Source: a virus (taxonomy: Duplodnaviria > Heunggongvirae > Uroviricota > Caudoviricetes). From it: a stretch of 15,679 bases of DNA. The translations under genes and the position numbers were made by a program. The stretch covers positions 1-15,679 of the IMG/VR virus record IMGVR_UViG_2778261463_000010, one strand, 5' to 3'. A model generated the notes under the pieces. It worked only from the letters and a program-made list of their open reading frames with translations. It had not been told where the DNA came from and made no database searches. Position 1 is the first letter of the stretch, and every line of letters begins with the position of its first letter. This document shows positions 1 through 15,679 of this stretch, one piece after another.

Positions 1-76
1 CCATTTGATCATATGACAAGATGTGTATCCACCTTAACTTAATGATTTTTACCAAAATCATTAGGGGATTCATCAG
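1..76 (-). mobile_element. IS10 (Tn10-type) outside terminal end; element body lies left of the window
   Basis: Reverse complement of 1-76 reads CTGATGAATCCCCTAATGATTTTGGTAAAAATCATTAAGTTAAGGTGGATACACATCTTGTCATATGATCAAATGG, which matches the recalled IS10 outside end. The chromosomal reading frame resumes at position 77. Confidence 0.8.
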
Positions 77-690
77 TGCTCGGTGTCTTTGTGCTGGCGC
101 TGCTGGGCTGGATTTTCAGTAAGTCTCTGGGGGTTGATGAATCCACCGTGGCAATCGTTGTTATGGCAACCATGCTGCTGCTGGGTATCGTTACCTGGGA
201 AGACGTGGTTAAAAATAAAGGCGGCTGGAATACCTTAATCTGGTACGGCGGTATTATCGGCTTAAGCTCCTTATTATCGAAAGTTAAATTCTTCGAATGG
301 TTAGCTGAAGTCTTTAAAAATAACCTGGCATTTGATGGTCACGGTAACGTTGCTTTCTTCGTTATTATTTTCCTCAGCATTATCGTGCGTTATTTCTTCG
401 CTTCCGGTAGTGCCTATATCGTTGCTATGTTACCGGTATTTGCCATGCTGGCGAACGTCTCCGGCGCACCGTTAATGTTAACCGCGCTGGCACTGTTGTT
501 CTCCAACTCCTATGGCGGCATGGTTACTCACTATGGCGGCGCGGCAGGTCCGGTCATCTTTGGCGTGGGTTATAACGATATTAAATCCTGGTGGTTGGTC
601 GGTGCGGTACTGACGATATTAACCTTCCTGGTGCATATCACCCTCGGCGTGTGGTGGTGGAATATGCTGATCGGCTGGAACATGCTGTAA
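77..690 (+). pseudogene. ybhI: 3' portion (about 204 codons) of ybhI-like anion transporter gene, interrupted by the IS10 end
   Basis: Highly hydrophobic multi-helix ORF ending at 690, directly upstream of ybhJ as in the known attλ neighbourhood. An in-frame stop lies within the IS10 sequence upstream, so the gene is split. Confidence 0.7.
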
Positions 691-815
691 ATATTCTCGT
701 CATACTTCAAGTTGCATGTGCTGCGTCTGCGTTCGCTCACCCCAGTCACTTACTTATGTAAGCTCCTGGGGATTCACTCGCTTGTCGCCTTCCTGCAACT
801 CGAATTATTTAGAGT
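690..815. repeat. ERIC (enterobacterial repetitive intergenic consensus) element
   Basis: Contains ATGTAAGCTCCTGGGGATTCAC (755-776) and the reverse complement of AAGTAAGTGACTGGGGTGAGCG (735-756), the two classical ERIC primer sites, within an imperfect palindrome between ybhI and ybhJ. Confidence 0.75.
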
Positions 816-872
816 ATATCCATTTATTATCTTTCTGCGCACTTCACGGTGCGCAGATATCTGGAGCATTTG

Positions 873-3134
873 ATGATCAAGTTATCTGAAAAAGGCGTGT
901 TTCTCGCCAGTAATAACGAAATAATTGCCGAAGAACATTTCACCGGCGAAATTAAAAAAGAAGAAGCCAAAAAAGGCACTATTGCCTGGTCTATTCTCTC
1001 TTCGCATAATACGTCCGGAAATATGGATAAACTTAAAATTAAGTTTGATTCATTAGCCTCTCACGATATTACCTTTGTTGGTATTGTACAGACCGCTAAA
1101 GCGTCCGGTATGGAACGTTTCCCGCTGCCGTATGTGCTGACCAACTGCCATAACTCACTCTGCGCCGTCGGCGGCACTATTAACGGTGATGACCATGTTT
1201 TTGGTTTATCGGCGGCCCAGCGTTATGGCGGTATTTTTGTGCCTCCGCATATTGCGGTCATCCATCAATATATGCGTGAGATGATGGCAGGCGGCGGCAA
1301 AATGATCCTCGGGTCAGACAGCCACACCCGTTACGGTGCATTAGGGACAATGGCAGTCGGTGAGGGCGGCGGTGAGTTGGTAAAACAGCTGCTTAATGAC
1401 ACCTGGGATATCGACTATCCGGGCGTGGTTGCGGTGCATCTGACCGGAAAACCTGCGCCGTATGTGGGGCCACAGGATGTGGCGCTGGCTATCATTGGCG
1501 CGGTGTTCAAAAACGGTTACGTCAAAAACAAAGTCATGGAGTTCGTTGGACCGGGCGTTAGCGCGCTCTCTACCGATTTCCGTAACAGCGTTGACGTGAT
1601 GACCACTGAAACGACCTGTTTAAGTTCTGTCTGGCAAACCGATGAAGAAGTCCATAACTGGCTGGCGCTGCACGGTCGCGGCCAGGATTACTGCCAGCTT
1701 AACCCTCAACCGATGGCGTACTACGATGGCTGCATCAGCGTTGATTTAAGCGCCATCAAACCAATGATTGCGCTGCCGTTCCACCCGAGCAACGTGTATG
1801 AAATCGACACACTGAACCAGAACCTGACCGACATTCTGCGTGAGATTGAAATTGAGTCCGAACGCGTGGCGCACGGTAAAGCCAAACTCTCGCTGCTGGA
1901 TAAAGTGGAAAATGGTCGCCTGAAAGTGCAGCAGGGGATTATCGCGGGCTGTTCTGGCGGTAACTACGAAAACGTCATCGCGGCGGCGAATGCACTGCGC
2001 GGTCAATCCTGTGGCAATGACACCTTCTCGCTGGCAGTTTACCCGTCATCACAGCCGGTGTTTATGGATCTCGCCAAAAAAGGTGTGGTAGCAGATTTGA
2101 TTGGCGCAGGCGCAATCATCAGAACCGCGTTCTGCGGCCCATGCTTTGGCGCGGGCGATACGCCAATCAACAACGGTTTGAGTATTCGCCACACCACGCG
2201 TAACTTCCCGAACCGCGAAGGCTCTAAGCCAGCTAATGGGCAGATGTCAGCGGTGGCGTTGATGGACGCTCGTTCTATCGCTGCGACTGCGGCAAACGGT
2301 GGCTATTTAACCTCTGCCAGCGAACTTGATTGCTGGGACAACGTGCCGGAGTACGCCTTCGATGTAACGCCGTATAAAAACCGTGTTTATCAGGGCTTTG
2401 TGAAAGGGGCAACTCAGCAACCGCTGATTTACGGGCCGAACATTAAAGACTGGCCGGAATTGGGTGCGCTGACTGACAATATCGTCCTGAAAGTGTGCTC
2501 GAAGATCCTCGACGAAGTGACCACCACCGACGAACTGATTCCTTCCGGTGAAACCTCTTCTTATCGTTCAAATCCGATTGGTCTGGCGGAGTTTACCCTG
2601 TCTCGCCGCGATCCCGGTTATGTTAGCAGAAGTAAAGCGACTGCTGAGCTGGAAAATCAGCGTCTGGCGGGGAATGTCAGCGAGCTGACAGAGGTGTTTG
2701 CGCGCATTAAGCAGATTGCTGGTCAGGAGCATATTGATCCGCTGCAAACTGAAATTGGCAGCATGGTCTATGCGGTGAAACCAGGCGATGGTTCTGCGCG
2801 TGAACAGGCGGCGAGCTGCCAGCGTGTGATTGGCGGTCTGGCGAATATTGCCGAGGAGTACGCGACTAAACGCTATCGTTCTAACGTCATCAACTGGGGG
2901 ATGTTACCGCTGCAAATGGCGGAAGTACCAACCTTTGAAGTGGGGGATTACATTTACATCCCTGGCATTAAAGCGGCGCTGGATAATCCGGGTACGACGT
3001 TTAAAGGTTATGTGATCCATGAAGATGCGCCGGTAACGGAAATTACGCTCTATATGGAAAGTCTGACTGCTGAAGAGCGCGAGATTATCAAGGCGGGTAG
3101 TTTGATTAACTTCAATAAAAACCGTCAGATGTAA
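873..3134 (+). CDS. ybhJ: Aconitase-family protein YbhJ (753 aa)
   Basis: Long ORF with aconitase-like Cys/Gly-rich motifs. ATG at 873 is preceded by GGAG at 863-866. The six-frame track's longer form starts at GTG 849. Confidence 0.88.
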
Positions 3135-3147
3135 AAAGCGCCATGTG

Positions 3148-3352
<205 letters not shown>

Positions 3353-3367
3353 AATAGTTAATTGCTC

Positions 3368-4651
3368 TTACTTCTTCGCCTCTGCAACCACTTTACTACC
3401 CACGCCGCGGTTATTGTATTCCCACATGCGGTTGTAGTTAGTGTCATTCAGATTGCGCTGTATTTCGTCGTTATCATCTACGCTGCCGGTATTACCCGCA
3501 AACGGACGATTAGAGATCACCGCATCGGCCCACGGTTTAGCCGTGTTAAAACCTTCGTTGATGGCGCTATCACGGATCACCACCTGACCGTTGGTATTGG
3601 CATCAACATCCAGCGAGCGGCCCAGTTGCGCCACACCATCACCGAAAGCATTGAAACGGCTGTTTACGGCGAGGAAACCGTAGTAAATGTTGGACAGCGT
3701 AGCCGGTGCAAACACATACGCTTCTTGCTGAGTACGTGAGTTCACCACGCGGAATTCGGTGTTATCGAACACCACTGCGCCGCGACCAGAAACGATATCC
3801 ACATCCCCTTCAATGTAGCTGTTGGTCACCAGCGTACGCGGCTGACGATTTGTTTCCAGACGGTTCTGCACACCGCTGTTGGTGACAAAGAAGGTGTTCT
3901 GACGACCGAGAATGTTAACGTTGTTAATCTGTACCTGGTCACCATCAGTACGCAGTGCCACCGCCGGATGGTTACCTGCATCTACGCTATCGCCCAGCGT
4001 GTTTTCGATGGTCAGATTTTGCAGTTGCAGGCCATTGTTTTGTGACCAGAAGACCGCAGAGCAGAGAACACCGATACTGTCGCTGCGTTTGCTCTGGCAG
4101 CTATCGTACATATACCACGCTGGTTTACCTGGCATATATTTGCCGCGCGGGTTGACGTCGTGACGCCAGTCGGCAGGGCTCATGCCACCATCAAGGGAAA
4201 GCCCAATCTTCACATCAATCGGTTTTTCACCTGTACCGTACAGAGTAATTCCACCCGGAGCGGCAGGGACATATACCGTTCCCTGATACTCACCAGGCAT
4301 CACGGCAATATACTGGCGCTTGTTGGTACGCTTGATAATTGCCGCATCTACCGCCGCCTGAATCGTGGTATGCGTTACACCTTGAGTGCCCGCCGGGTCG
4401 ACAACAAAGTCAGGTTGCGCAGGCAGGGTAATCGGGGAAGGATTCCACGCTGCAGCACCTGGTGTCAGGGATGCAAAATAGTGTTGAGCATCGAAATTCT
4501 GCGCTTCTTTTGCCGACAGAATCGGGCGAGAAGAGGTACCAGGCGCGGTTTGATCAGAAGGACGTTGATCGGGCGGGGTTGAGCTACAGGCGGTCAGCGT
4601 CACGCCAAAAGCCAATGCCAGCGCCAGACGGGAAACTGAAAATGTGTTCAC
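3368..4651 (-). CDS. ybhC: Outer-membrane lipoprotein YbhC (pectinesterase-like, 427 aa)
   Basis: ORF with signal peptide and lipobox LTAC. GTG start preceded by GGAG. Sits immediately chromosomal-side of the att core, as expected for the attλ left flank. Confidence 0.88.
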   Translation of the reverse strand: MNTFSVSRLALALAFGVTLTACSSTPPDQRPSDQTAPGTSSRPILSAKEAQNFDAQHYFASLTPGAAAWNPSPITLPAQPDFVVDPAGTQGVTHTTIQAAVDAAIIKRTNKRQYIAVMPGEYQGTVYVPAAPGGITLYGTGEKPIDVKIGLSLDGGMSPADWRHDVNPRGKYMPGKPAWYMYDSCQSKRSDSIGVLCSAVFWSQNNGLQLQNLTIENTLGDSVDAGNHPAVALRTDGDQVQINNVNILGRQNTFFVTNSGVQNRLETNRQPRTLVTNSYIEGDVDIVSGRGAVVFDNTEFRVVNSRTQQEAYVFAPATLSNIYYGFLAVNSRFNAFGDGVAQLGRSLDVDANTNGQVVIRDSAINEGFNTAKPWADAVISNRPFAGNTGSVDDNDEIQRNLNDTNYNRMWEYNNRGVGSKVVAEAKK

Positions 4652-4689
4652 AGGTTGCTCCGGGCTATGAAATAGAAAAATGAATCCGT

Positions 4690-4784
4690 TGAAGCCTGCT
4701 TTTTATACTAAGTTGGCATTATAAAAAAGCATTGCTTATCAATTTGTTGCAACGAACAGGTCACTATCAGTCAAAATAAAATCA
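4690..4784. other. attL: Prophage attL: att core plus lambda P' arm
   Basis: GCTTTTTATACTAA at 4698-4711 followed by GTTGGCATTATAAAAAAGCATTGCTTATCAATTTGTTGCAACGAACAGGTCACTATCAGTCAAAATAAAATCATTATTTG, which matches the recalled lambda P' arm, running up to the int stop. Confidence 0.9.
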
Positions 4785-5855
4785 TTATTTGATTTCAATT
4801 TTGTCCCACTCCCTGCCTCTGTCATCACGATACTGTGATGCCATGGTGTCCGACTTATGCCCGAGAAGATGTTGAGCAAATTTATCGCTTATCTGCTTCT
4901 CATAGAGTCTTGCAGACAAACTGCGCAACTCGTGAAAGGTTGGCGGATCCCCTTCGAAGGAGAGACCTGATGCTTTTCGTGCGCGCATAAAATACCTTGA
5001 TACTGTGCCGGATGAAAGCGGTTCACGACGAGTAGATGCAATTATGGTTTCTCCGCCAAGAATCTTTTTGCATTTATCAAGTGTTTCCTTCATTGATATC
5101 CCGAGAGCATCAACATGCAATGTTGTTGGGATGGCAATTTTTACGCCTGTTTTGCTTTGCTCGACATAAAGATATCCATCTACGATATCAGACCACTTCA
5201 TTTCGCATAAATCACCAACTCGCTGCCCGGTAACAACAGCCAGTTCCATTGCAAGTCTAAGCCAACATGGTGATGATTCTGCTGCTTGATAAATTTTCAG
5301 GTATTCGTCAGCCGTAAGTCTTGATCTCCTTACCTCTGATTTTGCAGCGCGAGTGGCTGCGACCGGGTTTGTTGTTATATGGCCTTCAGCCATAGCCTCT
5401 CGGAATGCATCGCTCAGTGTTGATCTGATTAACTTGGCTGATGCCGCCTTTCCCTCGTCTATGTATCCATTGAGCATTGCCGCAATTTCTTTTGTGGTGA
5501 TGTCTTCAAGTGGAGCATCAGGCAGACCCCTCCTTATTGCTTTAATTTTGCTCATGTAATTTATGAGTGTCTTCTGCTTGATTCCTCTGCTGGCCAGGAT
5601 TTTTTCGTAGCGATCAAGCCATGAATGTAACGTAACGGAATTATCACTGTTGATTCTCGCTGTCAGAGGCTTGTGTTTGTGTCCTGAAAATAACTCAATG
5701 TTGGCCTGTATAGCTTCAGTGATTGCGATTCGCCTGTCTCGGCCTAATCCAAACTCTTTACCCGTCCTTGGGTCCCTGTAGCAGTAATATCCATTGTTTC
5801 TTATATAAAGGTTAGGGGGTAAATCCCGGCGCTCATGACTTCGCCTTCTTCCCAT
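4785..5855 (-). CDS. int: Lambda-type tyrosine integrase Int (356 aa)
   Basis: Translation MGRRRSHERRDLPPNLYIRNNGYYCYRDPRTGKEF...REWDKIEIK is essentially the recalled lambda Int, with the catalytic C-terminal HxxR...Y region present. Confidence 0.97.
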   Translation of the reverse strand: MGRRRSHERRDLPPNLYIRNNGYYCYRDPRTGKEFGLGRDRRIAITEAIQANIELFSGHKHKPLTARINSDNSVTLHSWLDRYEKILASRGIKQKTLINYMSKIKAIRRGLPDAPLEDITTKEIAAMLNGYIDEGKAASAKLIRSTLSDAFREAMAEGHITTNPVAATRAAKSEVRRSRLTADEYLKIYQAAESSPCWLRLAMELAVVTGQRVGDLCEMKWSDIVDGYLYVEQSKTGVKIAIPTTLHVDALGISMKETLDKCKKILGGETIIASTRREPLSSGTVSRYFMRARKASGLSFEGDPPTFHELRSLSARLYEKQISDKFAQHLLGHKSDTMASQYRDDRGREWDKIEIK

Positions 5856-5949
5856 TTCTGATCCTCTTCAAAAGGCTACCTGTTACTGGTCGATTTAAGT
5901 CAACCTTTACCGCTGATTCGTGGAACAGATATTCTCTTCCATCCTTAAC
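5833..5949 (-). pseudogene. xis: 3' remnant of excisionase gene xis (about the last 38 codons); 5' half replaced
   Basis: Minus strand encodes ...VKDGREYLFHESAVKVDLNRPVTGGLLKRIRNGKKAKS*, overlapping the int start as in lambda. Reading upstream, an in-frame TAG occurs with no start codon, and the sequence diverges from lambda beyond about 5949. Confidence 0.8.
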
Positions 5950-6123
5950 GCAGATCGGATGATTACCGGTTCGCTACCAGGGAAGAACGGGAAGGAAAGG
6001 TGAGCACGAATCTGATTTTCAAGGAGTGTCGCCAGAGTGCCGCGATGAAGCGGATGTTGGCATTTTATCGCGGCAATTTTCAATAGACTATGTACATAAA
6101 AATATCATTTTTTTAATACATGT

Positions 6124-6315
6124 CTAATTATTGGACGAAATTGGTTTTTGCTTTGGTTTAGTTAGCCTAGCAATCAAGCCAGAGGCAATAATGATGATCC
6201 AAGCAATTTGATGCAATGCTACTCCAATATAAGAACCTTTATAGATAATAAAGGCATAGATCGCTAGAAACGAAATAAATATCCATAACGAAAGTTGATA
6301 AATTTTGGCGCGCAT
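6124..6315 (-). CDS. Hypothetical small membrane protein (63 aa, two predicted TM helices, basic C-terminus)
   Basis: ORF MRAKIYQLSLWIFISFLAIYAFIIYKGSYIGVALHQIAWIIIIASGLIARLTKPKQKPISSNN. Two hydrophobic stretches. No clear Shine-Dalgarno. Lies in the AT-rich island, divergent from the lipoprotein operon. Confidence 0.45.
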   Translation of the reverse strand: MRAKIYQLSLWIFISFLAIYAFIIYKGSYIGVALHQIAWIIIIASGLIARLTKPKQKPISSNN

Positions 6316-6571
6316 ATTTAATCCAATCAATCAGAAAGACGAGTAATCATAGAGGTACTATCACCCGGGTAACTATTGCTATTATGAACGGATAGGATAG
6401 AGGCTTCAATAACATATGCATCAAGTATGATGGAATATGTAGGTGAAAATGACTTGTGTCAAATTTGTGGAAATGAGTACCATGTTTCTCTGAAATTGAT
6501 GTCGTTAATGGCTAGTGATAGTGAACTTTTTTACTTTATAATTCCTTTGGTTATAACAATAAGGTAAATTT

Positions 6572-7132
6572 ATGAAGAAGATAATATTATTAGCCATGAT
6601 TATTGGTTCTTTAACAGGTTGCGCTAGTGTGCCACCATTGAATTTTTCAACACCTAACGTGGGAGTTAGCCAGAAAAAAATAGATGCTGAAATTAAGTCA
6701 TTAACGGTATCACTTGCTCGTCCAGATGAGCAGAAAGGGGATATCACTGCTGGTATGGAGGCTATAACTCCAATTTGGCGTGAATCTTTGCAGGAAGCAC
6801 TCGACCGAATGACTATTTTTCGTGATAGTTCACCAAATACGGTTAGCTTAAATGTTAAAGTGTTGGCTCTTGACGTTCCTGCTTTTGGTGTTTCAATGAC
6901 AACTAAAGCAATTGCAAGGTATGAAATAATCAACCGTGCGAATGGTGATATTATATATACGCAGGATATTGAGTCTACCGGTACTGTTCCAGCCAGTTAC
7001 GCATTCTACGGTATTGTTCGAGCACGCGAATCTGTTAATCGCGCGGTGCAAAACAACATAACGCAGTTCTTGCAAGCATTAGAAAGTGTTGATCTTTCTC
7101 GTCCAATGTTTCCTGTTAGGGTAGCTAAATGA
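6572..7132 (+). CDS. Hypothetical lipoprotein (186 aa), first gene of a two-gene operon
   Basis: Signal peptide MKKIILLAMIIGSLTGC with lipobox LTGC. AAGG 6 nt upstream of the ATG. AT-rich codon usage. Stop overlaps the next start (ATGA). Confidence 0.8.
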   Translation: MKKIILLAMIIGSLTGCASVPPLNFSTPNVGVSQKKIDAEIKSLTVSLARPDEQKGDITAGMEAITPIWRESLQEALDRMTIFRDSSPNTVSLNVKVLALDVPAFGVSMTTKAIARYEIINRANGDIIYTQDIESTGTVPASYAFYGIVRARESVNRAVQNNITQFLQALESVDLSRPMFPVRVAK

Positions 7133-7635
7133 AGCGATTATTCGTAATTGCTCCACTCTTAGTGTTGGTTGGATGCGCACAAAATATATCGCCAAATAGT
7201 TATTCTGTTGGCTCTGTGGGCATGGTTAATCGAACTATCGCTGGTACAGTTATTAGTGCTAGGGGGGTTGATATCAGTGGGACTTCCGCGTTAGGCGGGA
7301 CTGCTGGGGCTGCCGTGGGGGCAACCGCTGGTTCTGCGCTTGGTGGGGGAGTTCGTTCTAATATCGTTGGTGCCGTTGGTGGTGCAGTCATTGGTGGTAT
7401 TGCCGGGGCAGCAATCGAATCTTCAGCAACAAAACAAACAGGCATGGAATATGTTGTCGAAACTGAGAATGGGAATTTAATGACCATTGTTCAAGGCAAA
7501 GATCCGTTATTTACTCAAGGAAGTAAGGTCCTTGTTTTATACGGAAACCCTTCTCGCATAATAACAGACCGCGTCACTAACATACCTTTTGATTTTGTAA
7601 AATCAATTCGTAATAATAAAGTCATCGGAGCTTGA
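7129..7635 (+). CDS. SlyB/Pcp-like glycine-zipper outer-membrane lipoprotein (168 aa)
   Basis: Lipobox LVGC. Gly/Ala zipper GTSALGGTAGAAVGATAGSALGGG...GAVGGAVIGGIAGAAI followed by a beta-rich C-terminal segment (NGNLMTIVQGKD...SKVLVLYGNP). This matches the domain order I recall for SlyB. Start overlaps the upstream stop. Confidence 0.8.
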   Translation: MKRLFVIAPLLVLVGCAQNISPNSYSVGSVGMVNRTIAGTVISARGVDISGTSALGGTAGAAVGATAGSALGGGVRSNIVGAVGGAVIGGIAGAAIESSATKQTGMEYVVETENGNLMTIVQGKDPLFTQGSKVLVLYGNPSRIITDRVTNIPFDFVKSIRNNKVIGA

Positions 7636-7770
7636 ACAACTCCGGTGACTTCTGCGCTAAACGGGGACGTTTATGCGCACATACAATCCAAACTCTCTTC
7701 TCCCTTCACAGATGCAGAAATGCACCTGCGATTTTTTGCATCCAGCGTCTGACCTCTGCGGAGGTGAAGC

Positions 7771-8226
7771 GTGAACCTACCACAAGATGGCATCAAACTG
7801 CATCGCGGTAACTTCACCGCTATCGGCCAGCAGATCCAGCCTTATCTGGAGGACGGAAAATGCTTTCGCATGGTGCTTAAACCGTGGCGTGAGAAACGCA
7901 GTCTTTCCCAGAATGCACTCAGCCACATGTGGTACAGCGAAATCAGTGAATACCTCATCAGCAGGGGGAAATCGTTCGCTACCGCAGCATGGGTAAAAGA
8001 TGCTCTCAAACACACATACCTCGGTTATGAAACCAAGGACCTGGTTGATGTCGTAACCGGCGAAATCACTACTATCCAGTCGTTACGCCATACCTCCGAT
8101 CTTGATACCGGAGAGATGTATATCTTCCTGTGTAAGGTTGAAGCCTGGGCGGTGAATATTGGCTGCCACCTGACTATTCCGCAGAGCTGCGAGTTCCAGC
8201 AGCTCCGCGACAAACAGGAGGCGTAA
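7771..8226 (+). CDS. ybcN: NinB-family protein (YbcN-like, 151 aa)
   Basis: GTG start with GGAGGTG upstream. Shares the RSLxQN motif with lambda NinB. Gene order matches DLP12 ybcN-ninE-ybcO-rusA. Confidence 0.85.
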
Positions 8227-8396
8227 TGGCTACACCGCTTATTCGTGTCATGAACGGACACATCTACAGAGTACCAAATCGTCGTAAGCGTAAACCGGAG
8301 CTGAAGCCTTCCGAAATACCAACACTGCTCGGATATACCGCCAGCCTGGTTGATAAAAAATGGTTGCGACTGGCAGCAAGGAGGAGTCATGGCTGA
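8226..8396 (+). CDS. ninE: NinE-family protein (56 aa)
   Basis: ATG overlaps the ybcN stop (TAATG). Basic RRKRKP...WLRL pattern as in lambda NinE. Below the ORF-track length cutoff. Confidence 0.7.
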   Translation: MATPLIRVMNGHIYRVPNRRKRKPELKPSEIPTLLGYTASLVDKKWLRLAARRSHG

Positions 8397-8679
8397 TTTG
8401 AGAAAAGCAGCGCGTGGTCGGGAATGCCAGGTAAGAATCCCTGGCGTATGTAATGGCAACCCTGAAACGTCTGTACTGGCACATATCCGGCTGACTGGAT
8501 TGTGCGGCACCGGTACGAAACCGCCAGACCTGATTGCCACCATTGCATGTTCTGCCTGCCACGACGAAATCGACCGCCGCACACATTTTGTCGATGCTGC
8601 ATATGCAAAAGAATGCGCGCTGGAAGGTATGGCGAGAACACAGGTTATCTGGCTGAAAGAGGGGGTTATTAAGGCGTGA
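8389..8679 (+). CDS. ybcO: YbcO-like protein (DUF1364, putative nuclease, 96 aa)
   Basis: ATG at 8389 preceded by AGGAGG. Cys-rich CxxC...CxxC pattern. Overlaps the ninE stop by 8 nt. Confidence 0.82.
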
Positions 8680-9038
8680 ATACCTACAGCATCACATTAC
8701 CCTGGCCTCCGAGCAATAATCGCTATTACCGCCATAATCGCGGGCGCACACACATCAGCGCAGAAGGGCAGGCATACCGCGATAACGTCACCCGAATCAT
8801 TAAAAACGCAATGCTGGATATCGGCCTGGCTATGCCAGTGAAAATCCGTATTGAGTGCCACATGCCGGATCGCCGTCGCCGTGACCTGGATAATCTGCAA
8901 AAAGCCGCTTTTGACGCACTCACCAAAGCAGGTTTCTGGCTGGATGATGCTCAGGTCGTTGATTACCGCGTTGTGAAGATGCCTGTTACCAAAGGTGGGA
9001 GGCTGGAACTGACCATCACCGAAATGGGGAATGAATGA
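8676..9038 (+). CDS. rusA: Holliday junction resolvase RusA (120 aa)
   Basis: Translation [23 protein letters not shown]...[12 protein letters not shown] matches recalled RusA. GTG start overlaps the ybcO stop (GTGA). Confidence 0.92.
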
Positions 9039-9175
9039 TGTTTGAGTTTAATATGGCAGAACTTCTTCGCCACCGCTGGATGCGCCTGCGCTTATATCGT
9101 TTCCCCAGTTCTGTTTTGACCGATTACCGAATACTGAGGAATTACGCCAAAACCCTGACAGGAGCAGGAGTATGA
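9035..9175 (+). CDS. ylcG: YlcG-like small protein (46 aa)
   Basis: ATG overlaps the rusA stop. Position and size match DLP12 ylcG. Short ORF with weak independent support. Confidence 0.55.
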
Positions 9176-9260
9176 AGTCAGAGATAACAATCAACTAATA
9201 CTGTTTTATTGATTTTTGCTTGTAATTGGCGTTCTGGTCTGATTTTTGTGGAGTAAGTTG

Positions 9261-9644
9261 ATGCGTGATATTCAGATGGTTCTTGAGCGTTGGGGAGCGT
9301 GGGCGGCTAATAATCATGAAGATGTGACCTGGTCGTCCATTGCCGCCGGTTTTAAGGGATTAATTACTTCAAAAGTAAAATCTCGCCCGCAATGTTGTGA
9401 CGATGACGCGATGATCATTTGCGGGTGCATGGCCCGTCTGAAAAAGAACAACAGCGATTTGCACGATTTATTAGTAGATTATTATGTAGTCGGTATGACA
9501 TTCATGTCACTGGCAGGTAAGCATTGCTGCTCTGATGGTTATATCGGGAAAAGGTTACAGAAGGCTGAGGGTATAATTGAAGGGATGTTAATGGCATTAG
9601 ATATCCGGTTAGAGATGGATATCGTTGTTAATAACTCTAATTAA
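9261..9644 (+). CDS. quuD: Late-gene antiterminator Q (QuuD-like, 127 aa)
   Basis: ATG at 9261 with GGAG 9 nt upstream. Cys-rich zinc-binding-like region ([12 protein letters not shown]...HCC). Position immediately upstream of the late region. Confidence 0.85.
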
Positions 9645-9659
9645 TATGCCAATTGTTTA

Positions 9660-9695
9660 CTAAAAATTATTAAAAATGGGGCGTTGAGACGCCCC
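9660..9695 (-). terminator. Intrinsic terminator on the minus strand, downstream of the porin gene
   Basis: Stem GGGGCGT/ACGCCCC (9678-9684 and 9689-9695) with a 4-nt loop, followed on the minus strand by AUUUUUAAUAAUUUUU. Confidence 0.6.
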
Positions 9696-9832
9696 CAAAA
9701 ATAAAGGGTAATATATAACAGAAGGTTTATATAGTTAGAAGCAAGGTTGTGCTCCTAAAGGAAGTGGCTTGAGGGAGCCACTTATATGTTGGGGAGGCAA
9801 AGCCTCCCGCAACATATCTTTTAGTAATCAAA
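9660..9832 (-). ncRNA. ipeX: Candidate IpeX-like small RNA / structured 3' region downstream of the porin gene
   Basis: Three consecutive stable stem-loops (9678-9695, 9762-9783, 9784-9817) in the porin 3' intergenic region. In DLP12 the sRNA IpeX is reported at the 3' end of nmpC. Boundaries not determined. Confidence 0.4.
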
Positions 9833-10915
9833 TTAGAACTGGTAAACCATACCTACAGCAACGATATCATCGGTAGCAACGCCAGATGCTTTCGTGAAAT
9901 CGCTCTTATCAATCAGGTTGATTTTGTAATCAACAAAAGTGGACATATTTTTGTTGAAGTAATAGGTTGCACCTACATCAATATATTCAACCAGGTCCTG
10001 ATCACCCCACGCACCCAAGTCTTTTCCTTTAGATTGCAGGTAAGCAACGGACGGACGCAGACCGAAGTCGAACTGATATTGTGCAACTACTTCGAAGTTT
10101 TGTGCTTTGTTGGCAATATGGTTATTACCAAAAACAGTCATGTTCTGGGTTTCAGAATAGGTGGTAGCCAGATAGATGTTGTTCGCATCATATTTCAGAC
10201 CAGCTGCCCATACTTCAGCATTTTGACCAGATGCATTCAGGCTGTTGTTACCGTAGATAACCTGATTATTAGTGCGGTCAGATTTAGCATAGGTTGCACC
10301 TACACCGAATCCTTCATACTCATAAGTAGTGGAGAAACCGAAACCATCACCATTAGCTTCAGTTACGTCAGTGCGGTCATTTTTACCCTGATACTGAGCA
10401 GCAAAGTTCAGACCATCAACCAGACCAAAGAAGTCATTGTTACGATAAGTTGCAACACCTGTGGTGCGACCAGTCATGAATACATCTGTTTGGGTCCAGG
10501 TATCGCCACCGAATTCTGGCAGAACGTCGGTCCATGCACCAATATCGTATGCTACACCGTAGTTACGGCCATAATCGATGGAGCCGTAGTCACCGAATTT
10601 CAGGCCAGCGAAGGCAAGACGGGTTTTATCTTTGGAGGAACCTTGAGATTCAGCGCGGTTGCCTTTGAATTCATATTCCCACTGACCGAAACCAGTCAGT
10701 TGATCGTTGATTTGGGTTTCACCTTTGAAGCCAAGACGGGCATAAGTAGTATCACCATCATCTGCATCATTAGAGGAGAAGTAGTGCTTAGCATTAACTT
10801 TCCCGTACAGATCCAGCTTGTTACTGTCTTTATTATAAATTTCAGCTGCCTGAGCAGACATCGCCATCAGTACTGATGCAGCTACAGCAGAAATTGCCAC
10901 TGTTAATTTTTTCAT
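9833..10915 (-). CDS. nmpC: Prophage-encoded general porin of the NmpC/Lc/OmpD family (360 aa precursor), apparently intact
   Basis: Signal peptide [23 protein letters not shown], then [16 protein letters not shown]...; Gly/Tyr-rich beta-barrel pattern; C-terminal ...VGMVYQF. The ORF track's longer form starts at 10975. Confidence 0.93.
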
Positions 10916-11341
10916 CGTGAGCCCTTTTTTTGAACTATTATTAAAAAATGATGTCACTGCGCGATAAATATTCATCTAATCAATGTGATTATTTCAAGAT
11001 GTAAGTTTTGGTTTCTCATTTGATTTGTGAAGTAGATCTCTATTTTTATCTGAACTTTTTCTATCGAATCCTATTCATGGCTCTTGGCTGAATAAAAATA
11101 AATCTATTAGCCAATTTATATTAATGGCTGTTATTTATAAGCGCTCTATAATTTGAAGATTCAATTTAAACCAGCTAAAAATAACGCTGGAAATTATTTG
11201 TTGGTTATTTGTTGAGATTTGCTTATGTATTTGTAGTGGTGTTTTCAATACTCGGTAGCATTCTCGCAAATATCATTTAGTGGTTTACGTACGTAAAAAA
11301 TTGGTTATGCTGTTAAGAGTGGTTACTTCGTCACACAGCTT

Positions 11342-11375
11342 AAACCCGCCGTCGAGCGGGTTTTTCCATTTTTTG
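11342..11375 (+). terminator. Intrinsic terminator-like hairpin plus U-tract upstream of the lysis cassette (possible tR'-type site)
   Basis: Stem AAACCCGC/GCGGGTTT with loop CGTCGA, followed by TTTCCATTTTTTG. About 130 nt upstream of the holin start. Confidence 0.55.
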
Positions 11376-11502
11376 AGTCTCGATATTAGCTGATAACCCA
11401 ATACCTGAGTTATTCACTGACTCCGAGTCTGTTACGTTTCTGCTTTTTTGCGATACGTTGTATTCCCTCAATTTACACCCGCTTTGTCTGCGAGGTGGGG
11501 TT

Positions 11503-11718
11503 ATGAAATCCATGGATAAGTTAACAACGGGTGTCGCCTATGGCACCTCAGCAGGTAGTGCCGGTTACTGGTTTTTACAGCTGCTCGATAAAGTCACGCC
11601 CTCACAGTGGGCAGCAATAGGTGTGCTGGGTAGCCTGGTATTTGGCCTGCTGACGTACCTGACAAACCTTTATTTCAAGATTAAAGAAGATAAGCGCAAG
11701 GCTGCGAGAGGTGAATAA
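11503..11718 (+). CDS. essD: Class II holin (P21 S-type pinholin, EssD-like, 71 aa) with dual-start motif
   Basis: Translation [24 protein letters not shown]...[15 protein letters not shown] resembles recalled S21. Met1/Met4 dual start. GAGGTGGGG SD. Confidence 0.88.
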
Positions 11719-12215
11719 TGCCTCCATCATTACGAAAAGCCGTTGCTGCTGCTATTGGTGGCGGAGCAATTGCTATAGCATCAGTGTTAATTACTGGCCC
11801 AAGTGGTAACGATGGTCTGGAAGGTGTCAGCTACGTACCATACAAAGATATCGTTGGCGTATGGACTGTATGTCACGGACACACCGGAAAAGACATCATG
11901 CTCGGTAAAACGTATACCAAAGCAGAATGCAAAGCACTCTTGAATAAAGACCTTGCCACTGTCGCCAGACAAATTAACCCGTACATCAAAGTCGATATAC
12001 CGGAAACAACGCGCGGCGCTCTTTACTCATTCGTTTACAACGTGGGTGCTGGCAATTTCAGAACATCGACGCTTCTTCGCAAAATAAACCAGGGCGATAT
12101 CAAAGGCGCATGTGATCAGCTACGTCGCTGGACATATGCTGGCGGTAAGCAATGGAAAGGTCTCATGACTCGTCGTGAGATTGAGCGTGAAATCTGTTTG
12201 TGGGGTCAGCAATGA
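11718..12215 (+). CDS. rrrD: SAR endolysin (P21 R-type lysozyme, RrrD-like, 165 aa)
   Basis: N-terminal Gly/Ala-rich signal-anchor-release segment [20 protein letters not shown] followed by a T4-lysozyme-like catalytic region. Start overlaps the holin stop (TAATG). Confidence 0.93.
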
Positions 12216-12673
12216 ACAGAGTAACCGCGATTATCTCCGCTCTGGTTATCTGCATCATCGTCTACCTGTCATGGGCTGTTAATCATTACCGTGATAACGC
12301 CATTACCTACAAAGCCCAGCGCGACAAAAATGCCAGAGAACTGAAGCTGGCGAACGCGGCAATTACTGACATGCAGATGCGTCAGCGTGATGTTGCTGCG
12401 CTCGATGCAAAATACACGAAGGAGTTAGCTGATGCGAAAGCTGAAAATGATGCTCTGCGTGATGATGTTGCCGCTGGTCGTCGTCGGTTGCACATCAAAG
12501 CAGTCTGTCAGTCAGTGCGTGAAGCCACCACCGCCTCCGGCGTGGATAATGCAGCCTCCCCCCGACTGGCAGACACCGCTGAACGGGATTATTTCACCCT
12601 CAGAGAGAGGCTGATCACTATGCAAAAACAACTGGAAGGAACCCAGAAGTATATTAATGAGCAGTGCAGATAG
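12212..12673 (+). CDS. rzpD: Spanin inner-membrane subunit Rz (153 aa)
   Basis: N-terminal TM helix plus coiled-coil region. Near-identical to recalled lambda Rz. Start overlaps the endolysin stop. Confidence 0.93.
12432..12614 (+). CDS. rzoD: Spanin outer-membrane lipoprotein Rz1 (60 aa), embedded in Rz in the +1 frame
   Basis: Lipobox VVGC and proline-rich [13 protein letters not shown], entirely within Rz. Confidence 0.85.
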
Positions 12674-12704
12674 AGTTGCCCATATCGATGGGCAACTCAT
12701 GCAA

Positions 12705-12998
12705 TTATTGTGAGCAATACACACGCGCTTCCAGCGGAGTATAAATGCCTAAAGTAATAAAACCGAGCAATCCATTTACGAATGTTTGCTGGGTTTCTGT
12801 TTTAACAACATTTTCTGCGCCGCCACAAATTTTGGCTGCATCGACAGTTTTCTTCTGCCCAATTCCAGAAACGAAGAAATGATGGGTGATGGTTTCCTTT
12901 GGTGCTACTGCTGCCGGTTTGTTTTGAACAGTAAACGTCTGTTGAGCACATCCTGTAATAAGCAGGGCCAGCGCAGTAGCGAGTAGCATTTTTTTCAT
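12705..12998 (-). CDS. bor: Bor lipoprotein (serum-resistance family, 97 aa)
   Basis: Translation MKKMLLATALALLITGC... with lipobox ITGC. Matches recalled lambda Bor. Confidence 0.9.
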   Translation of the reverse strand: MKKMLLATALALLITGCAQQTFTVQNKPAAVAPKETITHHFFVSGIGQKKTVDAAKICGGAENVVKTETQQTFVNGLLGFITLGIYTPLEARVYCSQ

Positions 12999-13288
12999 GG
13001 TGTTATTCCCGATGCTTTTTGAAGTTCGCAGAATCGTATGTGTAGAAAATTAAACAAACCCTAAACAATGAGTTGAAATTTCATATTGTTAATATTTATT
13101 AATGTATGTCAGGTGCGATGAATCGTCATTGTATTCCCGGATTAACTATGTCCACAGCCCTGACGGGGAACTTCTCTGCGGGAGTGTCCGGGAATAATTA
13201 AAAACGATGCACACAGGGTTTAGCGCGTACACGTATTGCATTATGCCAACGCCCCGGTGCTGACACGGAAGAAACCGGACGTTATGAT

Positions 13289-13699
13289 TTAGCGTGGAAA
13301 GATTTGTGTAGTGTTCTGAATGCTCTCAGTAAATAGTAATGAATTATCAAAGGTATAGTAATATCTTTTATGTTCATGGATATTTGTAACCCATCGGAAA
13401 ACTCCTGCTTTAGCAAGATTTTCCCTGTATTGCTGAAATGTGATTTCTCTTGATTTCAACCTATCATAGGACGTTTCTATAAGATGCGTGTTTCTTGAGA
13501 ATTTAACATTTACAACCTTTTTAAGTCCTTTTATTAACACGGTGTTATCGTTTTCTAACACGATGTGAATATTATCTGTGGCTAGATAGTAAATATAATG
13601 TGAGACGTTGTGACGTTTTAGTTCAGAATAAAACAATTCACAGTTTAAATCTTTTCGCACTTGATCGAATATTTCTTTAAAAATGGCAACCTGAGCCAT
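13289..13699 (-). CDS. ybcV: YbcV-like protein (DUF1398, 136 aa)
   Basis: ORF conserved at this position in lambda and DLP12. The shorter start MAQVAIFKE is chosen; the ORF track extends to 13822. Confidence 0.75.
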
Positions 13700-13984
13700 T
13701 GGTAAAACCTTCCATGTGATACGAGGGCGCGTAGTTTGCATTATCGTTTTTATCGTTTCAATCTGGTCTGACCTCTTTGTGTTTTGTTGATGATTTATGT
13801 CAAATATTAGGAATGTTTTCACTTAATAGTATTGGTTGCGTAACAAAGTGCGGTCCTGCTGGCATTCTGGAGGGAAATACAACCGACAGATGTATGTAAG
13901 GCCAACGTGCTCAAATCTTCATACAGAAAGATTTGAAGTAATATTTTAACCGCTAGATGAAGAGCAAGCGCATGGAGCGACAAA

Positions 13985-14191
13985 ATGAATAAAGAACAAT
14001 CTGCTGATGATCCCTCCGTGGATCTGATTCGTGTAAAAAATATGCTTAATAGCACCATTTCTATGAGTTACCCTGATGTTGTAATTGCATGTATAGAACA
14101 TAAGGTGTCTCTGGAAGCATTCAGAGCAATTGAGGCAGCGTTGGTGAAGCACGATAATAATATGAAGGATTATTCCCTGGTGGTTGACTGA
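13985..14191 (+). CDS. ybcW: YbcW-like small protein (68 aa)
   Basis: [24 protein letters not shown]... at the conserved position between ybcV and ylcI. Confidence 0.7.
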
Positions 14192-14355
14192 TCACCATAA
14201 CTGCTAATCATTCAAACTATTTAGCCTGTGACAGAGCCAACACGCAGTCTGTCACTGTCAGGAAAGTGGTAAAACTGCAACTCAATTACTGCAATGCCCT
14301 CGTAATTAAGTGAATTTACAATATCGTCCTGTTCGGAGGGAAGAACGCGGGATGT

Positions 14356-14550
14356 TCATTCTTCATCACTTTTAATTGATGTATATGCTCTCTTTTCTGA
14401 CGTTAGTCTCCGACGGCAGGCTTCAATGACCCAGGCTGAGAAATTCCCGGACCCTTTTTGCTCAAGAGCGATGTTAATTTGTTCAATCATTTGGTTAGGA
14501 AAGCGGATGTTGCGGGTTGTTGTTCTGCGGGTTCTGTTCTTCGTTGACAT
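14356..14550 (-). CDS. ylcI: YlcI-like protein (DUF3950, 64 aa)
   Basis: Basic N-terminus MSTKNRTRRTTTRNIRF. Conserved just upstream of cos in lambda-like genomes. Confidence 0.72.
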   Translation of the reverse strand: MSTKNRTRRTTTRNIRFPNQMIEQINIALEQKGSGNFSAWVIEACRRRLTSEKRAYTSIKSDEE

Positions 14551-14699
14551 GAGGTTGCCCCGTATTCAGTGTCGCTGATTTGTATTGTCTGAAGTTGTTT
14601 TTACGTTAAGTTGATGCAGATCAATTAATACGATACCTGCGTCATAATTGATTATTTGACGTGGTTTGATGGCGTAGATGCACGTTGTGACATGTAGAT

Positions 14700-14830
14700 G
14701 ATAATTATTATCATTTTGCGGGTCCTTTCCGGCATGTGGACCCGTTACGGGGCGTCGACCTCGCGGTTTTTCGCTATTTATGAGATTTTTTGAGGGGGTG
14801 GTTGTTGTTTAATTGTTTGGTATATCTAAT
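14700..14830. other. cos: cos region (cosQ/cosN/cosB); cosN-like site near 14750-14761
   Basis: GGGGCGTCGACCTCGCGGTTTTTCGCTATTTATGA closely resembles the recalled lambda cohesive-end region GGGCGGCGACCTCGCGGGTTTTCGCTATTTATGA. Located about 220 nt upstream of the Nu1-like start. Confidence 0.7.
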
Positions 14831-14977
14831 TGATAAGTAAGGTAAAAATAAAATAAATACAACAACCTTACGGTGTATTTTGATGTCATTAATGTGAAAA
14901 AATTCAATGATATCAAATGGTTTTGTAAAAACACATGGTTGTTGTATCGCTTTTTATCGATGACTTATGGAGAGGAG

Positions 14978-15484
14978 ATGGCCTTTTTATTGAATAAAAG
15001 TGATATGGCCTCCTCCATCGGTATCTCTGTTCAGGCATTTGATAAATGGGGCGTTCCTCCTGTCGAGCGTCGGGGGAGGGAAGTTTTTTATGACGTTAAA
15101 ACTGTACTGGAGATAGATCGCGAGCGGCGACAACACAATCATAGAACACCTGATGACGGGGGCGATCTGGAGGAAAGGCTGCTTCGGGCCAGAGCTGAAC
15201 TGACAGAAGAACAGGCCGTAGCTCAAAAACTTAAAAATCAGGTAACCGAAGGTAAGCTCATCGATTCAGACTTCTGCGTTTTCGCCCTCAGCAAGCTGGC
15301 GATGGCATTGTCCAGTACGCTTGATTCTATTCCGTTATCCATGCAGCGACAGTTCCCGGATTTAACGCCACGTCATCTTGACCATCTGAAAACCCTTATT
15401 GCGAAGGGCGCAAATCAGTGTGCGCGGGCAGGGGATAAATTACCGGATTTGCTGGATGAATATATCAGAGCAACAACTGAATAA
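14978..15484 (+). CDS. nohD: Terminase small subunit (Nu1/NohD-like); start codon uncertain
   Basis: Aligns with lambda Nu1: the segment NKSDMASSIGISVQAFDKW against NKKQLADIFGASIRTIQNW, and similar C-terminus. ATG 14978 has GGAGAGGAG immediately upstream; alternatives are TTG 14939, ATG 14960 or GTG 14873. Confidence 0.8.
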   Translation: MAFLLNKSDMASSIGISVQAFDKWGVPPVERRGREVFYDVKTVLEIDRERRQHNHRTPDDGGDLEERLLRARAELTEEQAVAQKLKNQVTEGKLIDSDFCVFALSKLAMALSSTLDSIPLSMQRQFPDLTPRHLDHLKTLIAKGANQCARAGDKLPDLLDEYIRATTE

Positions 15485-15488
15485 TCTG

Positions 15489-15679
15489 ATGGCTGCCGTT
15501 TCGGTTGCGCTGCAGCCTCTGGTCAGGGTTGTACCGATGACGGCAGTTGAATGGGCTGACCAGTATTATTATCTGCCGAAAGAATCCTCATACGGTGACG
15601 GCGAATGGAAAACGCTGCCGTTCCAGATCGCCATCATGAACAGTATGGGGAATGATCAGGTCCGCACTGTTAATCTGAT
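15489..15679 (+). CDS. A: Terminase large subunit (gpA-like), N-terminal fragment; continues beyond the window
   Basis: Translation MAAVSVALQPLVRVVPMTAVEWADQYYYLPKESSYGDGEWKTLPFQIAIMNSMG resembles the recalled lambda gpA N-terminus (TAVEWADANYYLPKES...). Confidence 0.88.
   Translation, partial: MAAVSVALQPLVRVVPMTAVEWADQYYYLPKESSYGDGEWKTLPFQIAIMNSMGNDQVRTVNL

Follow-up and report, generated by a model that had tools for sequence, protein, structure and literature searches.

The best described relative of the system considered here is SlyB of Escherichia coli (b1641; structures PDB 7OJF and 7OJG), a glycine-zipper lipoprotein of the outer membrane that is regulated by PhoPQ. It is only lately that SlyB-type lipoproteins, which enclose BamA and porins, have come to be seen as protectors of the outer membrane; how they select what they enclose, and whether they act with partners, are current questions (PMC13067283). 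Other envelope genes are carried as morons by lambdoid prophages, such as bor, lom and the emrE-ybcM cargo, and exclusion has been demonstrated for single proteins such as T5 Llp, phi80/N15 Cor and F-plasmid TraT. This report addresses a pair of adjacent lipoprotein genes, LP1 and LP2, carried by a stretch of 15,679 nucleotides (positions 1 to 15,679 of the IMG/VR virus record IMGVR_UViG_2778261463_000010, hereafter the window) that includes a defective DLP12/lambda-like prophage.

LP1 (6572-7132, plus strand) encodes a predicted outer-membrane lipoprotein of 186 aa that begins with MKKIILLAMIIGSLTGC and carries the lipobox LTGC, with Cys17 as the lipid-modified residue. LP2, as read in the window (7129-7635, plus strand), encodes a SlyB-family, predicted glycine-zipper lipoprotein of 168 aa that begins with MKRLFVIAPLLVLVGC and carries the lipobox LVGC, with Cys16 as the modified residue. 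In both proteins this cysteine is followed by Ala at position +2 and sorting to the outer membrane is therefore predicted for both. The stop codon of LP1 and the start codon of LP2 share an ATGA (7129-7132, plus strand), read directly from the sequence, an overlap expected to couple their translation. An earlier reading of the window made from its letters alone (the sequence-only reading) had proposed two coupled lipoprotein open reading frames (ORFs), and the starts, lipoboxes and overlap are indeed those that it gave. Furthermore, both are genuine genes under strong purifying selection, since the proportion of non-synonymous differences between the E. coli and Klebsiella oxytoca copies (pN, 0.10 and 0.14 for the two genes) is far below that of synonymous differences (pS, 0.77 and 0.85, synonymous sites being saturated in this comparison) and since more than 500 relatives of each protein are retrieved at E <= 1e-3 from 5.8 billion proteins.

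Sequence and model comparisons identify LP2 as a true member of the SlyB family, new to this family, as the sequence-only reading had suspected. LP2 aligns over its full length with SlyB of strain K-12 (BLASTP, 33% identity, E 2e-12; hhalign, probability 98.6%), and a profile of 65 LP2-family members retrieves the SlyB structures 7ojf and 7ojg from the PDB (E 1.6e-14) and nothing else noteworthy. In the AlphaFold2 model (predicted local distance difference test, pLDDT, 75), a long strand is followed by two helices (55-71 and 75-101) that form a hairpin, then by a C-terminal domain of four strands; the sole significant PDB match of this model by Foldseek is 7ojf_A, the SlyB13-BamA complex (E 2.2e-8, template modelling (TM) scores 0.60/0.64). 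Like SlyB, whose lipobox is also LVGC (PMC3210124), LP2 combines an N-terminal strand, a predicted Gly/Ala helical hairpin with a GGG..R loop, a C-terminal beta domain and a C-terminal Pro-Arg. The resemblance to YfgH is only faint, SlyB being much closer. The Pfam glycine-zipper score of LP2 itself lies below threshold (20.8 bits for a cut-off of 24.2; PF05433 and PF13488 tested), and many of its homologues carry PF13488 or PF05433 above threshold. The two proteins nevertheless differ in their genetic setting. SlyB is a core protein, whereas LP2 is a mobile, accessory one; in K-12, neither of the genes next to slyB is co-directional with it, whereas LP2 is always preceded by LP1; and unlike PhoPQ-regulated SlyB, the LP2 cassette displays no PhoP box, none being found between 6330 and 6571 upstream of LP1 with the pattern (T/G)GTTTA-N5-(T/G)GTTTA even when 2 mismatches are allowed.

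The end of LP2 at 7635, proposed by the sequence-only reading, is artefactual: one base has been lost at 7569-7570 (plus strand), where the window reads CC instead of the CCC found elsewhere and where the LP2 frame shifts after Asp147. Strain E423 reads CCC at the aligned position, as do all 22 other E. coli loci fetched; a query of 1,009 bases is matched by 1,010 bases in each of 30 genomes sampled across the ranking, and the CC allele occurs in none of the 52 other E. coli copies examined. The native LP2 is thus a protein of 150 aa ending in ...IITDPRH, with its stop codon at 7578-7580 of the window. The deletion replaces the near-invariant Pro148, the invariant Arg149 and the terminal His by 21 other residues, a tail mostly read from the prophage backbone, which starts at 7587. 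As the site is a short homopolymer, a sequencing error is possible; the frameshifted tail may also impair this local copy of LP2.

On comparative grounds, LP1 and LP2 form a self-contained and horizontally mobile two-gene cassette. The survey of co-occurrence that the sequence-only reading had called for places LP2 directly downstream of LP1 in 67 of the 80 loci compared, which are drawn from different species, as well as in every paired viral contig, and all 33 LP2-type matches in IMG/VR are on contigs that also bear LP1. Stop and start codons overlap in 47 of the 59 loci whose boundaries can be resolved, across taxa, and the pairwise identity matrices of the two proteins are correlated (r 0.84, Mantel p 0.001). 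At the nucleotide level, the E. coli and K. oxytoca loci resemble each other over exactly the coding sequences of LP1 and LP2. A small hydrophobic ORF located upstream (6124-6330, minus strand; 63 aa from an ATG, 68 aa from a TTG), which the sequence-only reading had mentioned as a small membrane gene, is thus confined to the E. coli segment and does not belong to the conserved pair. All 22 E. coli loci keep this ORF intact, but they are themselves ~99-100% identical in DNA; it is not annotated by the Prokaryotic Genome Annotation Pipeline (PGAP) and matches no family in Pfam, NCBIfam or PHROG. As the neighbours found elsewhere are not recurrent either, the existence of a conserved third gene was rejected. 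No LP1-LP2 domain fusion was found, and the long relatives of LP1 bear other extensions. Some of these relatives have long C-terminal extensions, i.e. P0247 (440 aa), P0299 (644 aa), P0322 (539 aa) and P0244 (289 aa), and two of them, P0299 and P0322, lack the lipobox Cys and end in coiled-coil-like tails rich in Lys, Gln and Glu. A subgroup of LP1 relatives with 44-60% identity stands alone, in Photorhabdus, Xenorhabdus, Budvicia and Pseudomonas.

In E. coli, the pair is found in 280 of 5,426 complete genomes (5%), in copies at least 99% identical that are always chromosomal, none being carried by a plasmid of these genomes. In all 30 E. coli cases among the matches listed, its flanks are a ren remnant and ybcN. 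The deposited complete-genome record of phage PhiR30_1 (host E. coli C), which keeps its immunity, replication and head genes, carries the pair between ren and ninB. The native slot is thus ren-ninB, and not the immunity region to which the pair had at first been assigned. In the window, the cargo segment (6060-7586, no strand assigned) is flanked on the left by the 3' remnant of ren (5962-6086, plus strand; annotated as partial ren in strain E423), which matches ren of PhiR30_1 and renD of K-12, and on the right by ninB/ybcN (7771-8226, plus strand; Pfam NinB, ybcN in E423). Homology to the DLP12 prophage of K-12 detected by blastn stops at 6059, within ren, and restarts at 7587, the segment standing in place of the emrE, ylcJ, ybcK, ybcL and ybcM genes that fill the same slot in DLP12. 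Its base composition is as AT-rich as the sequence-only reading had stated (39.8% GC, 32% in its upstream part, versus 45.7% for the window). Because the pair replaces other cargo between ren and ninB and has a low GC content, it displays the anatomy of a moron, and the E. coli pair is, from these comparisons, moron cargo of DLP12/lambda-like prophages. This agrees with its absence from lambda and from K-12 DLP12, which had been remarked upon, and since the pair is accessory prophage cargo in E. coli, the possibility that both genes are ordinary core housekeeping genes of the chromosome fails. Like bor, lom and the emrE-ybcM cargo, the pair has a foreign base composition, lies between backbone genes and encodes envelope products; unlike them, it forms a conserved two-gene unit that is also found outside phages, and its proteins are unrelated to theirs.

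The cassette is also carried by other phages, at other places. In a Salmonella prophage, it is surrounded by toxin-antitoxin modules, and a ninB-like gene, ybcO and Q follow downstream. The accessory run of this Salmonella enterica prophage (loci L169-L171; ~5300-9800 of L169), bounded by the replication genes on one side and the ninB-like gene on the other, includes the modules YdaS/YdaT, PaaA2-ParE and MazE-PemK, then YoeB-YefM and HigB; LP1 is called at just 107 aa in L169 versus 201 aa in L170 and L171. The tail operon of Pantoea-type prophages carries the pair between the tape-measure gene and gene M; in one of these prophages (L172), the GC content is 38-46% at the pair versus 50-60% in its flanks, and LP2 is followed by a perfect hairpin and T-run, no clear promoter being detected. 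Further viral contigs carry the pair next to CI-like repressors, and in others only LP1 is present, either in the interval between tail genes K and I or adjacent to the tape-measure gene. Xenorhabdus-type and related prophages (L127-L130, 4466-10427; L123, 4552-9554) have a stand-alone LP1 gene within the tail cluster, flanked either by the lambda K and I homologues or by the genes for the major tail protein and the tape measure. These settings indicate that several unrelated temperate phages captured the cassette independently, tail-operon slots included, which fits a role of use to the phage or to the lysogen.

Beyond phages, a pattern-limited scan of 185,579 species representatives gave 93 confirmed matches, with a patchy spread of the family in alpha-, beta- and gamma-proteobacteria. 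Two of the loci bear labels from other taxa: L035, under the name Nocardiopsis yanglingensis A18, shares 94.6% identity over 12.5 kb with a metagenome-assembled genome (MAG) of Stenotrophomonas, and L086, under that of a Chitinophagaceae MAG, shares 92-94% identity with Pseudomonas loci. Both labels probably result from contamination or mis-binning. As this DNA is Stenotrophomonas-like and Pseudomonas-like, Nocardiopsis and Chitinophagaceae were rejected as added hosts and the host range is not widened. The neighbours vary, are mostly not phage genes and include TonB-dependent receptors, two-component systems and umuDC; about one locus in 10 adjoins a repressor or an integrase, and when the 150 nearest flanking ORFs of 40 species loci were scanned, few loci had recognisably phage neighbours. 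Because most members of the family are thus found in non-phage chromosomal settings, their distribution suggests that phages have borrowed a general envelope function.

LP1, the partner of LP2, matches no family in Pfam or NCBIfam. It matches phrog_12521, and neither of the two PHROG families of the pair (12521 and 13877) has an assigned function. An exhaustive profile search of 1.84 billion representatives gave 987 clusters for the LP1 family at E <= 1e-3, and 97 at E <= 1e-30. The model of LP1 (pLDDT 87.8, predicted TM score 0.81) displays two helices packed on a four-stranded antiparallel sheet, the arrangement sought in a lipoprotein of the LptE/PqiC/PelC type. The predicted fold thus places LP1 in this alpha/beta class of ring- or plug-type outer-membrane lipoproteins, from which it differs in two respects: its sequence identity to LptE, PqiC (DUF330), PelC and CsgG-N lipoproteins is 7-15%, without any family match by sequence, and no associated transporter gene lies nearby. 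A search of viral folds in BFVD gave only low-quality matches (TM < 0.4). Conservation of LP1 peaks at PPLNFSxPNVG, just after the lipid anchor, and at the C-terminal RPMFP, two motifs that we infer to be candidate contact sites. In LP2, the invariant motif is SPSRxIxDPR.

Several other identities have been attributed to LP1. PGAP has recently named it 'YajG family lipoprotein', a name that was only partly reproduced. Like YajG, a protein uncharacterised in E. coli and encoded by a core gene adjoining ampG, LP1 is a lipoprotein of similar size, and their sequence likeness is weak: BLASTP gives 26% identity over 166 residues (E 2e-4), and hhalign gives probabilities of 82-87% for alignments that are partly signal peptide, the best one (87%, E 3.7e-6) covering 121 columns with the signal peptide included. 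PF03923 (Lipoprotein_16), to which K-12 YajG scores 176.8 bits, does not match LP1 even at E 0.1. The label 'UDP-N-acetylglucosamine acyltransferase' is widespread on LP1 relatives (e.g. P0001, P0003, P0021, P0041 and XSB42265.1 of PhiR30_1). This older label was rejected for LP1, in which neither Pfam nor NCBIfam detects an acyltransferase or hexapeptide repeats and whose fold is unrelated, and it looks like an annotation error that has been propagated. An analogy with the yfgH-yfgI pair, in which LP1 would be a YfgI-like partner, was also rejected, as the two proteins show no similarity.

The explanation that we favour is that the cassette supplies the lysogen with a standing, SlyB-type shield of the outer membrane. 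The two outer-membrane lipoproteins would probably be made in a fixed ratio. By homology, LP2 would embed its helical glycine-zipper hairpin in the outer membrane and, if it behaves as SlyB does (PMC13067283; bioRxiv 10.64898/2025.12.22.696046), would assemble into transmembrane rings enclosing outer-membrane proteins and lipid patches. LP1, judging from its linkage to LP2, is most likely its obligate partner and would be present in matching amounts, as an adaptor, a cap or a lipid-binding subunit of the same assembly. The cassette would be expressed in the lysogen from a promoter of its own, free of the PhoPQ control that applies to chromosomal slyB. As a net effect, the outer membrane would be hardened against envelope damage and the enclosed proteins would be less accessible. 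The identity claims for the LP1/LP2 cassette, taken alone, are held with high confidence; the whole chain from genes to benefit has about an even chance of being right.

Several facts weigh against this chain. The LP2 allele of the window itself is frameshifted. An identity of 33% to SlyB leaves room for a different target or behaviour of LP2, and as LP1 occurs alone in one subgroup, it is able to function without LP2. Finally, the expression signals of the E. coli cassette are weak matches, and such sites are not above chance in the region: a sigma-70 promoter-like site (6515-6542, plus strand; GTGATA-16-TATAAT, 10/12) whose end lies ~30 nt upstream of LP1 does no more than match the consensus, and a terminator-like hairpin with a T-run (7713-7740, plus strand), located between LP2 and ninB, is a weak match within the backbone shared with K-12 DLP12.

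The most serious alternative, although a less likely one, is superinfection exclusion or receptor masking as proposed by the sequence-only reading, in which an LP1-LP2 assembly would lock or enclose phage receptors and thereby block adsorption or injection. It shares its mechanism with the shield, the two readings differing in what is selected. Temperate phages carry the genes in at least 4 kinds of slot: ren-ninB (E. coli and Salmonella), tape measure-M, K-I or next to the tape measure (LP1 alone), and beside CI-like repressors. Some of these positions are beside host-recognition genes. The genes cor and llp are similarly placed near such genes. The enclosure of BamA and porins by SlyB would provide the means (PMC13067283), and T5 Llp, reported to be an inner-leaflet lipoprotein that blocks FhuA, provides a precedent (10.64898/2026.03.26.714494). 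However, the distribution of the family is mostly chromosomal, with few phage neighbours in the species loci scanned, and the proteins are 55-70% identical across bacterial classes whose receptors differ. Moreover, no known defence or exclusion family is matched, PADLOC detecting no known defence system in the pair. LP1 and LP2 have no sequence relationship to Llp, Cor or TraT, and whereas the latter are single proteins with demonstrated exclusion, the cassette encodes two proteins. A more specific version, in which a SlyB-type ring of LP2, capped or targeted by an LptE-like LP1, would corral receptors away from rival phages and from the phage's own progeny, is a little less probable still. 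If true, such a ring corral would turn a bacterial mechanism of protection against stress into a phage weapon.

An outer-membrane shield, our preferred reading, concerns the intact cassette and is therefore compatible with a different proposal made for this genome alone, namely that the copy of the window is decaying cargo without present function. Through the deletion, LP2 loses the conserved Pro148 and Arg149 and gains 21 foreign residues, the allele was seen in none of the 52 other copies, and the prophage of the window lacks everything from xis to P. However, just the last 3 of 150 residues are affected, the short homopolymer could conceal a sequencing error and LP1 is intact; present decay is improbable.

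A late lytic role, in which the pair would keep newly made phages from adhering to debris, or would tune the strength of the outer membrane and hence the timing of lysis, is very unlikely. It is suggested by the Pantoea-type prophages, where the pair is co-directional with the tail operon with gaps of 42-60 nt, and by the prophages in which LP1 stands alone between tail genes K and I. However, the strong intrinsic terminator and deviating GC content in the Pantoea-type prophages mark the pair as an autonomous insert rather than a member of the tail operon; the E. coli pair belongs to the early-right region and is remote from the lysis genes, which include their own Rz/Rz1; and most copies are found outside phages. 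Protection against the envelope weapons of competitors (effectors, colicins or antimicrobial peptides), carried in variable islands, has marginally the poorest prospects of all. It is suggested by neighbours such as type VI secretion system PAAR/Tle1 effectors, a NERD protein, X-Tfe type IV secretion effector domains, MmeI restriction genes, BstA and many toxin-antitoxin pairs. However, each of these neighbours is seen just once or twice, they are typical of any variable region, and no partner gene recurs.

No paper describing the pair or phage PhiR30_1 was found in the literature, and a paper on phages of enterohaemorrhagic E. coli cites the SlyB study solely in another context. What is new here is the constant, coupled partner from an undescribed family, the mobility of the cassette and its repeated recruitment by phages. 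The cassette represents a natural SlyB paralogue with one specific partner lipoprotein that can be cloned whole and that temperate phages have repeatedly acquired. It could reveal whether SlyB-like rings use adaptor subunits and how such a shield benefits a prophage, be it by making the host tolerant of stress or by keeping rival phages out. In addition, it opens a way into an unnamed and widely mislabelled lipoprotein family of about 1,000 sequence clusters.

The window starts with E. coli chromosome (ybhJ, ybhC), followed by the defective prophage at the lambda attachment site. Between ybhJ and ybhC, two near-identical copies of a palindromic unit of the repetitive extragenic palindrome/bacterial interspersed mosaic element (REP/BIME) type (3145-3321) yield mirrored spurious ORFs on both strands. 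The prophage contains int (4785-5855, minus strand), the ren remnant, LP1 and LP2, ninB/ybcN, ninE, ybcO, rusA and quuD, then an OmpC-type porin gene, lysis genes, bor, ybcV, ybcW and nohD. Comparison with strain E423 reveals a deletion junction at ~5946-5949, where a truncated xis runs straight into the 3' part of ren. The loss of the stretch between these two remnants from the window prophage accounts for the short distance from the pair to int. E423 keeps ~4.25 kb (xis to exo) that are absent from the window prophage, and immunity and replication genes are missing from both.

The sequence-only reading had also stressed that the same prophage bears a porin gene (9833-10975, minus strand) and bor (12705-12998, start at 12998), and both are present. 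A specific tie between the pair and this porin is not supported, as no porin gene lies within the 8 kb examined on either side of the pair in the Pantoea-type and Salmonella prophages. The porin ORF as mechanically called starts 20 codons 5' of its likely true start, and the annotation of strain E423 gives a shorter OmpC-type protein of 360 aa. The only zero-mismatch PhoP-box-like repeat of the window (TGTTTAGGGTTTGTTTA; 13051-13067, minus strand) lies 53-69 nt upstream of the bor start. Since the borD gene of K-12 is reportedly activated by PhoP, the envelope gene that PhoPQ controls in this prophage may be bor and not the SlyB-like gene.

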